12,211 bases of DNA, from UHGV virus genome UHGV-1627304; one strand, written 5' to 3'. The translations under genes were made by a program, and so were the position numbers. Numbering within the stretch: the first letter of the stretch is position 1; the number at the start of each line of letters is the position of its first letter. This DNA comes from a virus. The notes under the pieces were generated by a model. It was not told the DNA's origin. It worked only from the letters and a program-made list of their open reading frames with translations, and did no database searches. Of the stretch, positions 4,177 through 9,994 are shown piece by piece.

Positions 4177-4386
<210 letters not shown>

Positions 4387-4399
4387 TTAGTACATGCAA

Positions 4400-4470
4400 C
4401 CATTATCACCGCTAGAGGTAAAATAGTCAACACGCACGGTGTTAGATATTTATCCCTCGCGGTGATAGAT
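4400..4470. promoter_or_regulatory. Right operator OR1-OR2-OR3 with divergent PR (minus strand, cro) and PRM (plus strand, cI)
   Basis: 17-bp sites read directly: OR1 4404-4420 tatcaccgctagaggta, OR2 4428-4444 caacacgcacggtgtta, OR3 4451-4467 tatccctcgcggtgata. PR -10 (gataat) and -35 (ttgact) on the minus strand at 4402-4407 and 4425-4430. cI ATG at 4478 directly follows the PRM region (leaderless arrangement as in lambda). Confidence 0.85.
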
Positions 4471-4474
4471 TTAA

Positions 4475-5191
<717 letters not shown>

Positions 5192-5209: not shown

Positions 5210-5650
5210 ATGAGAGAAGAAAAAATAATAACAATCTACACAACGGCGGTAAAACCCGGGCTGGCAATCACTCCTTTTATGACACCAGATCCTATAATAG
5301 TGTCGGAAGAATACCCTTGTTCCGGCTCATTTTACCTAACTGCAATAATGTACTTCGAGCACGAAAAAAAATACACTACCGAACTTGATGTCGTATTCAA
5401 TGGAGAATCGGTTTTACCTGATATCTCTAGCAATCAAGAGCAACTGCAAACATTTATGTTTTCTCCTGTCAATGAAAAATATGTTGTGGTTGGCACATAT
5501 CTTTTCGTTAAAAACATCAAACTTATAGAAACAGGAACATATGACATAATTTATCGCATCTTTGAAGACATTGATGGTAATCTTAGCGAAGTTATTGATG
5601 AAAAAAAATGCGCTCTTATTTCAACCACCCCGAACAGAGATAAGGAATGA
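5210..5650 (+). CDS. Hypothetical protein (146 aa, no predicted TM segment), first gene of a two-gene cassette at the rexA/rexB position
   Basis: ORF starts 19 nt after the cI stop with AAGGA SD; ATGA overlap with the next gene. Visibly AT-rich. No motif I recognise; not RexA-like in size or sequence. Confidence 0.75.
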   Translation: MREEKIITIYTTAVKPGLAITPFMTPDPIIVSEEYPCSGSFYLTAIMYFEHEKKYTTELDVVFNGESVLPDISSNQEQLQTFMFSPVNEKYVVVGTYLFVKNIKLIETGTYDIIYRIFEDIDGNLSEVIDEKKCALISTTPNRDKE

Positions 5651-6003
5651 AACGACATCTGTACGCTGTGCCTCTTGACAGGAGTAAAGTTGATAATTTT
5701 CCACATAACCACCATAATGATGAGACATATGGTGGTGGTAACGGTGGAGGTGGTGACATGTTACAGCGCATAAAAATTCTTGAAGATAAAGTCGCAACCA
5801 TGGCGACCGACATCGCTGTAATTAAGTCTAACTATGCAACATCTGCCAATGTAGAATCTGTTAAAACAGACATAGCTAATGCAAAAGCAGAACTTCACAG
5901 CGCAATGAGACTCCAAGCCATGGCTATTATTGGTTCAGTTCTTGCAGCCGTTGGAACTGGTGTTGGGTTAATAATAAAAATGATGCCATCACTACCTCAC
6001 TAA
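5647..6003 (+). CDS. Hypothetical small membrane protein (118 aa from ATG 5647, or 82 aa from ATG 5758): His/Gly-rich N-terminus, predicted coiled-coil, C-terminal hydrophobic helix
   Basis: Translation MKRHLYAVPLDRSKVDNFPHNHHNDETYGGGNGGGGDMLQRIKILEDKVATMATDIAVIKS...LQAMAIIGSVLAAVGTGVGLIIKMMPSLPH. Hydrophobic stretch AMAIIGSVLAAVGTGVGLII near the C-terminus. An internal in-frame ATG at 5758 has a better SD (GGAGG, 7-nt spacing). Followed directly by a terminator. Confidence 0.7.
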   Translation: MKRHLYAVPLDRSKVDNFPHNHHNDETYGGGNGGGGDMLQRIKILEDKVATMATDIAVIKSNYATSANVESVKTDIANAKAELHSAMRLQAMAIIGSVLAAVGTGVGLIIKMMPSLPH

Positions 6004-6015
6004 GAATCTACACAA

Positions 6016-6040
6016 CCCGGCCTCAGCGCCGGGTTTTCTT
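6016..6040 (+). terminator. Intrinsic terminator ending the cI operon (timm-like)
   Basis: cccggc-ctcagc-gccggg stem-loop (6016-6033) followed by TTTTCTTT. The flanking sequence matches the lambda region between rexB and PL as recalled. Confidence 0.75.
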
Positions 6041-6194
6041 TGCCTCACGATCCCCCAAAAAACGCATAACCAATTGTATTTATTTCAAAATTAATAGATA
6101 CAACTCACTAAACATCGCAATTCAGATCTCTCGATCACCTTCCCAATCCACACAACCCTGCAAAAAAATAAATCTATATAAAAAACATACAGAT

Positions 6195-6264
6195 AACCAT
6201 CTGCGGTGATAAATTATCTCTGGCGGTGTTGACATAAATACCACTGGCGGTGATACTAAGCACA
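6195..6264 (+). promoter_or_regulatory. Left operator OL3-OL2-OL1 with PL promoter
   Basis: OL3 6195-6211 aaccatctgcggtgata, OL2 6215-6231 tatctctggcggtgttg, OL1 6239-6255 taccactggcggtgata. PL -35 ttgaca 6229-6234 and -10 gatact 6252-6257. Classic lambda PL sequence. Confidence 0.85.
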
Positions 6265-6438: not shown

Positions 6439-6771
6439 ATGGATGCACAAGCACGCCGCCGCGAACGTCGCGCAGAGAAACAGGCTCAATGGAAAGCAGC
6501 AAATCCCCTGTTGGTTGGGGTAAGCGCAAAACCAGTTAACCGCCCTATTCTCTCGCTGAATCGCAAACCGAAATCACGAGTAGAAAGCGCACTGAATCCG
6601 ATAGACCTTACGGTGCTGGCTGAATACCACGAACAGATTGAAAGCAACCTGCAACGTATTGAACGCAAGAATCAGCGCACATGGTACAGCAAGCCACGCA
6701 GTGAAATGGGTGTGACTTGTGTTGGTCGCCAGAAGCAACGCGGAAAATCAATTCCAGCTTATTACGATTGA
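6439..6771 (+). CDS. N: Antitermination protein N (110 aa)
   Basis: MDAQARRRERRAEKQAQWKAANPLLVGVSAKPVNRPILSLNRKPKSRVESALNPIDLTVLAEYHEQIESNLQRIERKNQRTWYSKP... matches lambda N (arginine-rich boxB-binding motif at the N-terminus); C-terminal ~20 aa diverge. Start at 6439 with GGAGAA SD, not the upstream ATG at 6349. Confidence 0.9.
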   Translation: MDAQARRRERRAEKQAQWKAANPLLVGVSAKPVNRPILSLNRKPKSRVESALNPIDLTVLAEYHEQIESNLQRIERKNQRTWYSKPRSEMGVTCVGRQKQRGKSIPAYYD

Positions 6772-6917: not shown

Positions 6918-6974
6918 CAGGTAACTTAAGCGTATTTACTTTCGCAGCAAACCACTTATTTGAGAGGAATTAAT

Positions 6975-7598
6975 ATGTCATCAATCCGCTTAACTACGAG
7001 AATGAAAGAGAAAATCGCTCGTAACGCTTTAATTAAGTCTGGGGTTTTCACTGAACTTGAAGAAGTAACAAAGTTAAAGAACCAGCTTGCACTTGACGCC
7101 AGAGTTATTGCGTTTGGCGGTAAAAAGAAAACTGAGGAAGTGGATCAGTTATCATCCAGGTTAGTAGCTATAAGTGAAGAACTTGAAAAGATGGGATGTT
7201 CATTTTACTCATACGATGTTCGTTCTACTTCAATTTATCTGACTGTATCTGGCAGAAGGGTTGGATGGCATTCATATGGGAAAGACGGCAACGGCGAAGA
7301 TATATTGCTCCCTACTCCAACCAAAGATAAATGCATGTTTGATGCAGAACACGAAATAACAAAAAGGTTTGATGAAATCTGCGCATTGCAACAAAAACTT
7401 GAAGCCAAGAAAAAGGATATCGAATCAAATGTATGGGCTGCTTTGAACTCAGTCACAACAGTTAAGCGACTTATTGAAGTTTGGCCTGAAAGCAAAGAAT
7501 TGCTACCAAAAGAAGCAGACAAAGCAAGTACAGCACTTCCTGCTTTACGGGTAGAAGATTTGAATAAGATGATTGGACTTCCTTCCGAGTCCGCATAG
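6975..7598 (+). CDS. Hypothetical protein (207 aa), unknown function, at the position lambda uses for ral/sieB-type accessory genes
   Basis: Long ORF with GAGAGGA SD 6 nt before ATG at 6975 (track shows a TTG-initiated extension from 6960). AT-rich. Lys/Glu-rich helical-looking stretches. No motif recognised. Confidence 0.75.
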   Translation: MSSIRLTTRMKEKIARNALIKSGVFTELEEVTKLKNQLALDARVIAFGGKKKTEEVDQLSSRLVAISEELEKMGCSFYSYDVRSTSIYLTVSGRRVGWHSYGKDGNGEDILLPTPTKDKCMFDAEHEITKRFDEICALQQKLEAKKKDIESNVWAALNSVTTVKRLIEVWPESKELLPKEADKASTALPALRVEDLNKMIGLPSESA

Positions 7599-8348: not shown

Positions 8349-9056
8349 ATGGATTTGAACAAATTCGATGAGCCATTCAGCCCTGAAGATATCGAATGGC
8401 GAATACAGCAAAGCGGTAAAACACGCGATGGCAAGGTGTGGGCTATGGTGCTGGCTTATGTCACGAACCGGGCAATCATGAAACGCCTGGACGATGTTTG
8501 CGGCAAAGCAGGATGGCGCAATGAATACCGCGATATTCCCAACAACGGCGGAGTTGAATGCGGCATATCAATCAAGATTGATTCCGAATGGGTAACCAAA
8601 TGGGATGCTGCTGAAAACACGCAGGTAGAAGCCGTCAAAGGTGGTCGTTCAGGTGCAATGAAGCGTGCTGCCGTTCAGTGGGGAATCGGTCGGTATCTGT
8701 ATAACCTTGAGGAAGGTTTTGCACAAACATCTCTCGATAAAAAGCAGGGGTGGCACAGGGCAAAACTGAAGGATGGAACAGGATTTTACTGGCTCCCTCC
8801 ATCGCTGCCTGGATGGGCAATCCCAGCATCAGATAACAAACCATCACCAGAAAATACCAACCAGAAATCTCCATCGGTTGACTGCGAACAAATCCTGAAA
8901 GACTTCAGCGATTATGCGTCAACAGAAACTGACAAGAAAAAACTCATCGAGCGTTATCAGCGTGACTGGCAATTAATGGCTGGCAACGAGGAGGCGCAGG
9001 CTAAATGCGTTCAGGTAATGAACATCAGAGTTAACGAACTAAAACAGGCGGCATAA
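8349..9056 (+). CDS. Rad52-family single-strand annealing protein (phage recombinase), 235 aa
   Basis: Motif region GGRSGAMKRAAVQWGIGRYLYNL resembles the conserved Rad52/Sak-type N-terminal domain. Occupies the position lambda gives to bet. GAGGTGA SD upstream. Confidence 0.8.
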   Translation: MDLNKFDEPFSPEDIEWRIQQSGKTRDGKVWAMVLAYVTNRAIMKRLDDVCGKAGWRNEYRDIPNNGGVECGISIKIDSEWVTKWDAAENTQVEAVKGGRSGAMKRAAVQWGIGRYLYNLEEGFAQTSLDKKQGWHRAKLKDGTGFYWLPPSLPGWAIPASDNKPSPENTNQKSPSVDCEQILKDFSDYASTETDKKKLIERYQRDWQLMAGNEEAQAKCVQVMNIRVNELKQAA

Positions 9057-9524
9057 ATGTCTCACTTGGACGGAATTATTAAAAGATTCGAGTCCAGCTA
9101 CAAAGTTAATGAAACAACAGGTTGCTGGGAGTCTACCTATTCAAAAAACAAAGGAGGATACACAAAATTTGTAGCCTTTGGCGTAACAATGCTTTCTCAT
9201 CGTGTTGCTTTTGAGCTTTATCACTCCCCCATTCCATCTGGGAAGATGGTTTGCCACAAATGCGATAACCCATGCTGCGTTAATCCTGAACATCTCTTTT
9301 TAGGTAGCGCGCAAGAAAACATGGACGACAAGATAGCAAAAGGAAGGCATCGTGGAGCCAAGAAAGGTCATGCTCATCATGGTGCAAAATTAACAGAGTG
9401 GCAGGTTATAGAAATTAGGAAAAGACTCTCTGAAAAAGAGAGTCAGTACAAGATAGCAAAAGACATGGGTGTATCTCAATCAATTATAAGCAACATAAAA
9501 ACTGGCAAGAGGTGGAGCAAATGA
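9057..9524 (+). CDS. HNH homing endonuclease (155 aa)
   Basis: HNH signature ...[58 protein letters not shown]... ATG directly abuts the recombinase stop (TAAATG); its stop overlaps the ssb start (ATGA). Confidence 0.8.
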
Positions 9525-9994
9525 GTTCTCGCGGGATAAATAAGGTGATTATCCTTGGTCGGGTAGGACAAGACCCGGAAGTTCGATACTCACCATCAGG
9601 AACGGCATTTGCAAACCTTACAGTTGCTACGTCAGAACAATGGCGTGATAAGCAAACTGGAGAGCAAAAGGAGCAGACGGAGTGGCACCGTGTGGTAATG
9701 AGCGGGAAACTGGCAGAAATTGCCAGCGAATATCTGCGAAAAGGCTCTGAGGTTTATCTTGAAGGCAAATTACGGACAAGAAAATGGCAGGATCAAAGCG
9801 GACAGGATAGGTTCACTACCGAAGTCATCGTGGGCGTTGGTGGAACCATGCAAATGCTTGGTGGCAAGCAAGGAGGCAATGAACAGTCTTCACCTCAGCG
9901 AAATAACGGTCAGCAACAAAGACAGCAACCTCAGCAGCATGGAAATCACAGCGAACCACCTATGAACTTCGACGATTCGGATATTCCGTTCTAG
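9521..9994 (+). CDS. ssb: Single-stranded DNA-binding protein (157 aa)
   Basis: [59 protein letters not shown]... with C-terminal acidic tail DDSDIPF. Highly similar to E. coli SSB as recalled. Start at ATG 9521 rather than GTG 9512. Confidence 0.9.

Follow-up and report, generated by a model that had tools for sequence, protein, structure and literature searches.

A Candidate Two-Start Membrane-Protein Gene in the rexAB Slot of a Lambda-Immunity Prophage

Overview

A 12,211-nucleotide stretch of the viral genome UHGV-1627304 (hereafter, the window) contains orf118 (positions 5647–6003), the last gene of a lambda-type immunity operon in which it follows the repressor gene cI and a partner gene, orf146; every feature of this operon described below lies on the + strand. 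We propose, with a probability of roughly 0.68, that orf118 is a nested in-frame two-start gene of the immunity operon (cI, orf146, orf118 and the terminator T_IMM) that would produce a long and a short isoform. The long form, of 118 amino acid residues (aa), would be initiated at ATG 5647, its initiation being coupled to orf146 termination through an ATGA overlap and a weak Shine–Dalgarno (SD) sequence, and would bear a disordered leader ending in a conserved Gly motif. The short form (81 aa) would be initiated at ATG 5758 from a strong GGAGG written into Gly codons, and would correspond to the conserved core, that is, to a coiled coil with a motif of the beta-layer type (Y-A-T-K-x-D) and an anchor in the membrane at its C-terminus. 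Both forms would be made from the immunity operon transcript, and the short form probably also from a promoter of its own; transcripts from the embedded sigma-70-like element would encode only the short form, just as those from P_LIT encode only rexB.

An initial annotation of this DNA had raised the possibility of two isoforms from one gene. Comparison among relatives lends that possibility strong support, which comes from an internal GGAGG held by a rare synonymous codon, a near-invariant ATG or GTG, relatives that start at Met38 and a promoter-like element embedded in the leader.

The Two Start Codons of orf118

The first start codon, ATG 5647–5649, shares the TGA at 5648–5650 with the upstream open reading frame (ORF; 5210–5650), forming ATGA, and the AAGGA at 5642–5646 abuts it with zero spacer. 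The second, ATG 5758–5760, lies in frame 111 nt, or 37 codons, past the first and is preceded by GGAGG at 5746–5750 with a 7-nt spacer. These elements are read directly from the DNA, and the start ambiguity that had been pointed out is therefore real. The peptide between the two ATGs, MKRHLYAVPLDRSKVDNFPHNHHNDETYGGGNGGGGD, is likewise as first quoted; the short product (5758–6003) had been given as 82 aa and is in fact 81 aa, the 82 codons including the stop. Between these ATGs, the frame offers one further start codon, GTG 5668, which lacks an SD sequence.

The predicted energy of the duplex with the anti-SD sequence is −10.6 kcal/mol at 5758 versus −2.9 kcal/mol at 5647. As controls, we took 1002 internal in-frame ATGs from related loci, whose energies have a median of −1.9 and a 5th percentile of −6.2 kcal/mol. 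The internal SD and start at 5758 exceed chance expectation.

Conservation of the Internal Start and Its Shine–Dalgarno Sequence

About 160 related loci were fetched and compared, from which 47 representatives with less than 70% identity to each other were drawn. Homologs of orf118 number 67 in a word-indexed search, and a family profile search of 1.84 billion cluster representatives gave 1670 matches at E ≤ 1e-3. Members share a common plan, in which a variable leader of 30–44 codons is followed by the Gly motif, a near-invariant Met, the coiled coil and a C-terminal hydrophobic segment. Gene callers are split on where these proteins begin, as databank entries of 74–82 aa and of 100–124 aa derive from the same ORFs.

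Of 72 unique sequences, 68 have ATG as the internal start codon and the remaining 4 have GTG, even though the cores fall to 30–40% identity. Upstream of it, 35 of 42 representatives (59 of 67 sequences) use the rare GGA for the Gly codon at position −4, while the Gly codons at −9 to −5 are GGA in only 32 of 154 pooled cases (about 21%; 12–36% by codon; Fisher test against codon −4, 1e-13). The choice of GGA at codon −4 sets the distance of GGAGG from the internal start at 7 nt, an arrangement present in 34 of the 47 representatives. The mean anti-SD duplex energy at the family's internal starts is −9.9 kcal/mol, against −1.9 for the controls, and 91% of these starts surpass the 5th percentile of the 1002 control ATGs. 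In a comparison of the two starts, the internal SD is much the stronger, with an average of −10.65 kcal/mol versus −5.2 at the long start.

Relatives that begin at the internal Met also occur as free-standing genes. On Pseudescherichia chromosomes, 78-aa relatives start at this Met, and the frame upstream is either closed or lacks a start codon. The sequence preceding these short forms, AAC GGA GAA GGA GAG, looks like a relic of the Gly motif retained as an SD. The loci concerned (L002–L009 and L163–L164 in our numbering, from chromosomes of Pseudescherichia and Escherichia sp. ESNIH1) lie between a DUF903 gene and terC/mutH, outside prophages, and L002 contains two tandem copies. They look like domesticated cores.

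The features of nested internal initiation are found together in this family, namely, a conserved in-frame start, a correctly spaced SD and constraint at synonymous sites. The alignments indicate nucleotide-level constraint on the SD, on the internal start codon and on the promoter hexamers described below.

A hairpin masking the internal SD was also considered. The RNA fold computed for the window has z = −0.91. Across the family, the accessibility of the SD is 0.34 in the long context, 0.38 when the upstream sequence is shuffled and 0.52 in the short transcript (native versus shuffled, P = 0.045). The signal is weak, and we do not rely on it.

Translation and Composition of the Leader

The leader, 37 codons at 5647–5757, would be present in the long isoform only. 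The AlphaFold2 (AF2) model predicts residues 1–35 to be disordered, with a predicted local distance difference test score (pLDDT) below 50 at residues 1–5 and 18–32, in agreement with the disordered extension first suggested. It ends in the Gly motif G-G-G-N-G-G-G-G-D (5731–5757; GGT GGT GGT AAC GGT GGA GGT GGT GAC), which is also a joint of homology or recombination, as described below.

In an alignment of 53 homologs, the family motif is [YH]-G-[GD]-G-N-G-G-G-[DG]-D. The entropy over codons −9 to −1 is 3-periodic, being low at the first two positions of each codon and high at the third, and the G-G-G-N-G-G-G-D-D motif varies at third codon positions only. Among the 24 partner-linked representatives, the leader is open in the frame of the core in 23, against 0 and 4 in the other two frames, and stop codons number 1 in the core frame versus 137 and 38 elsewhere. 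In all 43 of the 43 partner-linked loci, an in-frame start codon lies −23 to +10 nt from the partner's stop, giving leaders of 30–44 codons. Because the frame is kept open and the Gly motif varies at third positions only, these comparisons indicate that the leader is translated and that the constraint on the Gly motif acts on the protein.

The run of Gly residues, which had been taken for low-complexity sequence, is a conserved family motif. A metal-binding role had also been suggested for the His-rich leader, but the His cluster shows no conservation among relatives. Where a His-containing dipeptide does recur, its codons are invariably CAT-NNT and it coincides with a −10-like hexamer, so that the constraint is on nucleotides. 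On these two grounds, a metal-binding leader was rejected. Toward its N-terminus, a hydrophobic-x-hydrophobic-Pro motif is found in only 9 of 24 representatives and is not general.

A Promoter-like Element inside the Leader

A candidate sigma-70-like promoter spans 5690–5718, with a −35 hexamer TTGATA at 5690–5695, a spacer of 17 nt and a −10 hexamer CATAAT at 5713–5718, matching the consensus at 10 of 12 positions. Its predicted transcription start is at about 5725, and a transcript from there would encode the short form alone. A lone consensus match in the window carries little weight by itself; it is the recurrence of the element at a fixed position in relatives that suggests a promoter. 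A site with at least 8 of 12 matches, ending 35–41 nt before the internal ATG, is present in 18 of the 47 representatives versus 1.9% of random anchors in the same loci (binomial P about 3e-19), and at the 9 of 12 threshold or above the figures are 10 of 47 and 0.3%.

The family element is TTGAnn-17 nt-CATAMT, in which the hexamers are conserved (T-x-G-A and C-A-T-A-M-T) and the intervening 17 nt are variable. The −10 hexamer occurs in two codon registers, as CAT-ACT, which encodes His-Thr, and as xCA-TAC-Txx, which encodes Ala-Tyr-Ser; the −35 hexamer shifts with the register of the −10, thereby preserving the 17-nt spacing. When sites are picked by the peptide alone, His is encoded by CAT in 13 of 13, Thr by ACT in 5 of 5 and Asn by AAT in 5 of 5, whereas elsewhere in the same genes these codons account for 67%, 30% and 62%. 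Given this codon bias and the two registers, the "P-H-N/T" feature of the leader is largely a DNA signal. The arrangement recalls P_LIT of phage lambda, which is embedded in the distal part of rexA and transcribes rexB alone up to T_IMM (bioRxiv 10.1101/2021.04.19.439022). We infer that the candidate promoter is active and that both proteins are made.

An out-of-frame ATG at 5729–5731 arises from the conserved xAT-GGx junction between the Tyr/His codon and the first Gly codon. It is located a few bases past the predicted start of the short transcript and would open an ORF of about 14 codons overlapping ATG 5758.

The Core Protein

The short isoform, or core (5758–6003), is predicted to comprise a coiled coil and a C-terminal transmembrane anchor. 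In the AF2 monomer model, it is one continuous helix extending from residue 36 to residue 112. The family coiled coil carries D-I-A-V-I-K-S-N-Y-A-T-K-x-D, in which S61, N62, Y63, A64 and T65 are nearly invariant in the 53-homolog alignment. The beta-layer consensus of trimeric coiled coils is [aliphatic]-A-T-K-[polar]-[DE] (PMC4786415), and the family's Y-A-T-K-x-D fits it. The window's own copy, N-Y-A-T-S-A-N (5830–5850), is a divergent, beta-layer-like version of the family's S-N-Y-A-T-K-x-D, its Y-A-T-S-A-N being degenerate. The family profile matches the alpha/beta coiled coil 5APZ (E = 1.8e-5), and the CCDC90-like Pfam model PF07798 scores 16 bits, below its cut-off of 33.5. The core coiled coil is probably trimeric. 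The hydrophobic segment that would serve as tail anchor, AMAIIGSVLAAVGTGVGLIIKMM (5917–5985; residues 91–113), is helical in the AF2 model and is followed only by PSLPH.

Some relatives have elaborated on this plan. In Pantoea (L010 and L014), a 20-residue D-V-A-V-I-K-S-N-Y-A-T-K-x-D unit is repeated two or three times in some relatives, and in Xenorhabdus (L050 and others) very long Ser-rich expansions of coiled-coil repeats separate the motif from the membrane anchor.

The Immunity Operon and the rexA/rexB Slot

The window is a lambda-immunity prophage, and its + strand is the lambda leftward strand. The DNA of cI, cro and N is 97–99% identical to that of lambda-immunity phages. The operon's first gene, cI (4478–5191), encodes a repressor of 237 aa with Peptidase_S24 (9.8e-29) and HTH_3 domains, and the near-identical, lambda-type cI/cro interval is 4177–5191; N is at 6439–6771. 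Operators of the lambda type are confined to OR (4404–4467) and OL (6195–6255), the operator scan finding none within the orf118 leader. At the end of the operon is an intrinsic terminator (6014–6045), with an 8-bp GC-rich stem and a T tract, which is 92–94% identical to the T_IMM region of lambda and CL707 and is a homolog of T_IMM.

The interval from cI to T_IMM is occupied by orf146 (5210–5650) and orf118 in place of rexA and rexB. The order matches the position of RexAB, as cI ends at 5191, the two genes span 5210–6003, and the T_IMM homolog and OL follow. Neither gene has a RexA or RexB match in Pfam, NCBIfam or PADLOC, and the match to lambda DNA resumes only at 6014. More broadly, orf118 has no family match in these three databases, and we found no paper mentioning WP_001549084 or WP_001549085. 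Of 5426 complete E. coli genomes, 4 have an identical locus, in which the Prokaryotic Genome Annotation Pipeline (PGAP) annotates the long ORF; strains ECONIH5 and ABWA45 are among its carriers. In the wild lambda-immunity phages HK244, HK542 and CL707, the cI-to-T_IMM slot holds other non-rex genes; the HK244 proteins, tried as relatives of orf146 and orf118, are unrelated.

The Partner Gene and Modularity

The product of orf146 is predicted to be a cytoplasmic, all-beta protein. Its AF2 model (pLDDT 84.7; predicted template modelling score 0.79) is a confident immunoglobulin (Ig)-like sandwich lacking a signal peptide. No match was found in Pfam, NCBIfam or PADLOC, a PDB sequence search returned nothing, and Foldseek searches of the PDB and BFVD gave generic Ig-like matches only (template modelling scores of 0.3–0.63). 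In one E. coli O125ac strain, C 236-04A (NZ_CP109924.1; hit H34), the match occurs at two places in the record and begins at query base 119, and the orf146 homolog is annotated as 122 aa (P0070), suggesting truncation of the partner gene or an insertion into it.

In 43 of 103 loci, the gene immediately preceding the family gene is a homologous partner, and 27 of 72 second-upstream ORFs encode Peptidase_S24 repressors. The order of repressor, partner of 136–154 aa and family gene recurs in prophages of E. coli, Serratia, Pantoea, Pectobacterium, Enterobacter and Klebsiella, so that, across the loci compared, the repressor-partner-orf118 gene order is conserved.

Within this order, the parts have been exchanged. 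In two comparisons, the window with L083 and L100 with L109, cores that are 95–100% identical are joined to partners of about 23% and leaders of 15–21% identity; between L100 and L109, the cores are up to 100% identical, the partners 24% and the leaders 15%. The reverse is seen for L022 and L139, where identity is 66% for the partner, 56% for the leader and 30% for the core; leader type here tracks partner type and not the core. Along the DNA, the identity between the window and L083 jumps from about 0.5–0.6 to 0.8–0.97 at about position 5735. This step, together with the discordance between cores and leaders, means that the Gly motif and the internal start act as a boundary between genes would. 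The global correlation of partner and leader identity is low (Spearman 0.15) since most pairs are saturated, and the linkage of partner and leader rests on the individual discordant pairs. In the reading that we favour, the long form would carry a leader specific to its partner, which would tie it to the partner protein.

Alternative Explanations

We have considered an arrangement in which only the 81-aa core matters, the leader being read through from the coupled start to keep ribosomes on the pRM transcript and avoid polarity, so that the extension would have no function as a peptide. The strongest nucleotide-level signals, that is, the SD, the ATG and the promoter hexamers, do all serve the core, the N-terminal two-thirds of the leader are very variable (25% identity or less between types), free-standing short forms exist, and the homology joint falls at the internal start, the usual site of a gene boundary in mosaic phages. 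Yet the residues G-G-G-N-G upstream of the SD are conserved although their third codon positions vary freely, a sign that selection acts on the peptide. Leader length is also held at 30–44 codons, leader types are conserved within partner types, and 23 of 24 representatives keep the frame open. We judge this explanation unlikely. It is highly improbable, in our estimation, that only the 118-aa protein is made and that GGAGG, the Met and the hexamers are kept for peptide function, a translational pause or by shared ancestry. This would agree with the PGAP annotation of the long ORF, the Gly motif is a peptide-level feature, and the Met might be structural at the start of the helix. A peptide function leaves unexplained, however, why one Gly has a fixed rare synonymous codon amid freely varying neighbours, the ATG is replaced only by GTG, the same hexamers appear in two reading registers, and relatives begin at the internal Met.

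A lysis timer of the holin/antiholin type, with antagonistic long and short forms, had been hinted at in the initial annotation, and the formal idea of a long and short pair survives from it. The lysis role itself seems to us scarcely credible, as genomic context and family tests contradict it. The gene does encode a small membrane protein with two in-frame starts, and a few relatives are named "hemolysin XhlA", with weak scores against PF10779. In every prophage examined, though, its place on the lysogenic transcript is between cI and T_IMM, in an immunity operon rather than a lysis cassette; the order of repressor, partner and family gene is shared by six genera, and none of these loci has an endolysin gene close by. 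Searches of Pfam and PHROGs matched the window protein to no holin family and not to XhlA. Its transmembrane segment is at the extreme C-terminus and, with only PSLPH after hydrophobic residues 91–113, lacks a charged tail; the starts are 37 codons apart, and the extension is far from the membrane segment.

Several points weigh against the nested two-start gene that we favour, the support for which comes from sequence comparison. In eight of the 47 representatives, there is no GGAGG at 20 nt or less from the internal start, and 29 of 47 lack a promoter-like site of at least 8 of 12 matches at the fixed position. The −10 hexamer of the window begins with C where the consensus has T, and a promoter scan confined to the window is not enriched (4 sites versus 5.3 expected). 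Because representatives with less than 70% identity were treated as independent, the P values given above overstate significance. Some "short" databank proteins are gene-caller choices on long ORFs, as in P0045 versus L091. A tblastn search with two family members against 50,697 records of cultured phages gave no homologs, and searches of PADLOC, Pfam, NCBIfam and the PDB gave no specific function match for the module.

Comparison with Known Systems

Phage lambda rexA–rexB is among the closest known systems. Both gene pairs fill the same slot after cI, co-oriented with it and ended by T_IMM, and in both a soluble first gene product is followed by a membrane-protein second gene that apparently has its own promoter within upstream coding sequence, the candidate here being within orf118. 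The two pairs have no sequence or fold relationship, and RexB has four membrane segments as opposed to one C-terminal anchor. A further difference is that the embedded signals of orf118 sit in its own N-terminal extension; the outcome would therefore be two protein isoforms, unlike the two transcripts alone of rexB. RexAB excludes superinfecting phage by membrane depolarisation. From the position of the slot alone, the most likely role of the orf146–orf118 module is a lysogen-expressed membrane function, in superinfection exclusion or abortive infection. HK244, HK542 and CL707 share the immunity region and the filling of the slot by non-rex genes, with proteins unrelated to those of orf146 and orf118.

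Dual-start holins, lambda S107/S105 and their relatives, have in common with orf118 one gene with two in-frame starts giving a longer and a shorter membrane protein. Their starts are separated by 2 codons, with a difference of a single positive charge beside the membrane helix, and they belong to late lysis cassettes, in contrast to the 37 codons and the immunity operon of orf118. XhlA (PF10779), of the Bacillus PBSX-type lysis cassette, shares a short coiled coil and a C-terminal membrane segment, but differs in context, as orf118 is in a repressor operon. In Bacillus PBSX, XhlA acts with a holin. Sub-threshold matches to PF10779 at E ≤ 0.1 were obtained for 5 of 53 relatives; the window protein gave none, and the best score among members individually scored is 16 bits against a cut-off of 34.7. 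XhlA membership was rejected, the scores being below the Pfam gathering cut-off throughout the relatives scored. Tcar0761 (DUF3782) and the CCDC90-like membrane proteins of DUF1640 are alpha/beta coiled coils with beta-layers, whose published consensus is the one that the family motif fits and the window's copy departs from; DUF1640 resembles the family in its stalk with a C-terminal membrane segment.

Comparison makes the locus a clear case of signals for transcription and translation inside a coding sequence that appear to be kept by selection at synonymous sites. The module is conserved, uncharacterised and repressor-linked, in prophages of E. coli, Salmonella, Citrobacter, Enterobacter, Klebsiella, Serratia, Pantoea and Pectobacterium, and its slot is the one used for RexAB in lambda and for defence genes in other phages. 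It is a candidate for a new prophage exclusion system, whose regulation would mirror the long-puzzling rexB/P_LIT arrangement.

A wider proposal, which taken as a whole we consider rather doubtful, is that the 111-nt leader is an overlapping code (peptide, promoter, ribosome-binding site and start codon) of a widespread, undescribed two-gene Enterobacterales prophage module in the rexAB slot. The long isoform would be made one-for-one with the Ig-like partner through coupling and be tethered to it by a partner-specific leader, and the short isoform would make up the bulk of a trimeric membrane stalk. The ratio of long to short might then set the trigger of a Rex-like abortive infection or exclusion response, and the joint at the Gly motif could let phages re-pair a sensor plus leader with other membrane cores.

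Neighbouring Genes

Beyond the operon, the gene directly after N (6960–7598) encodes Nmad5, a nucleotide-modification-associated domain 5 protein (PF18757, 4e-72). An HNH_3 endonuclease gene (9057–9524) is located between a Rad52/22-family recombinase gene (8349–9056) and ssb (9512–9994). It abuts one neighbour and overlaps the other, and resembles a homing-endonuclease insertion.

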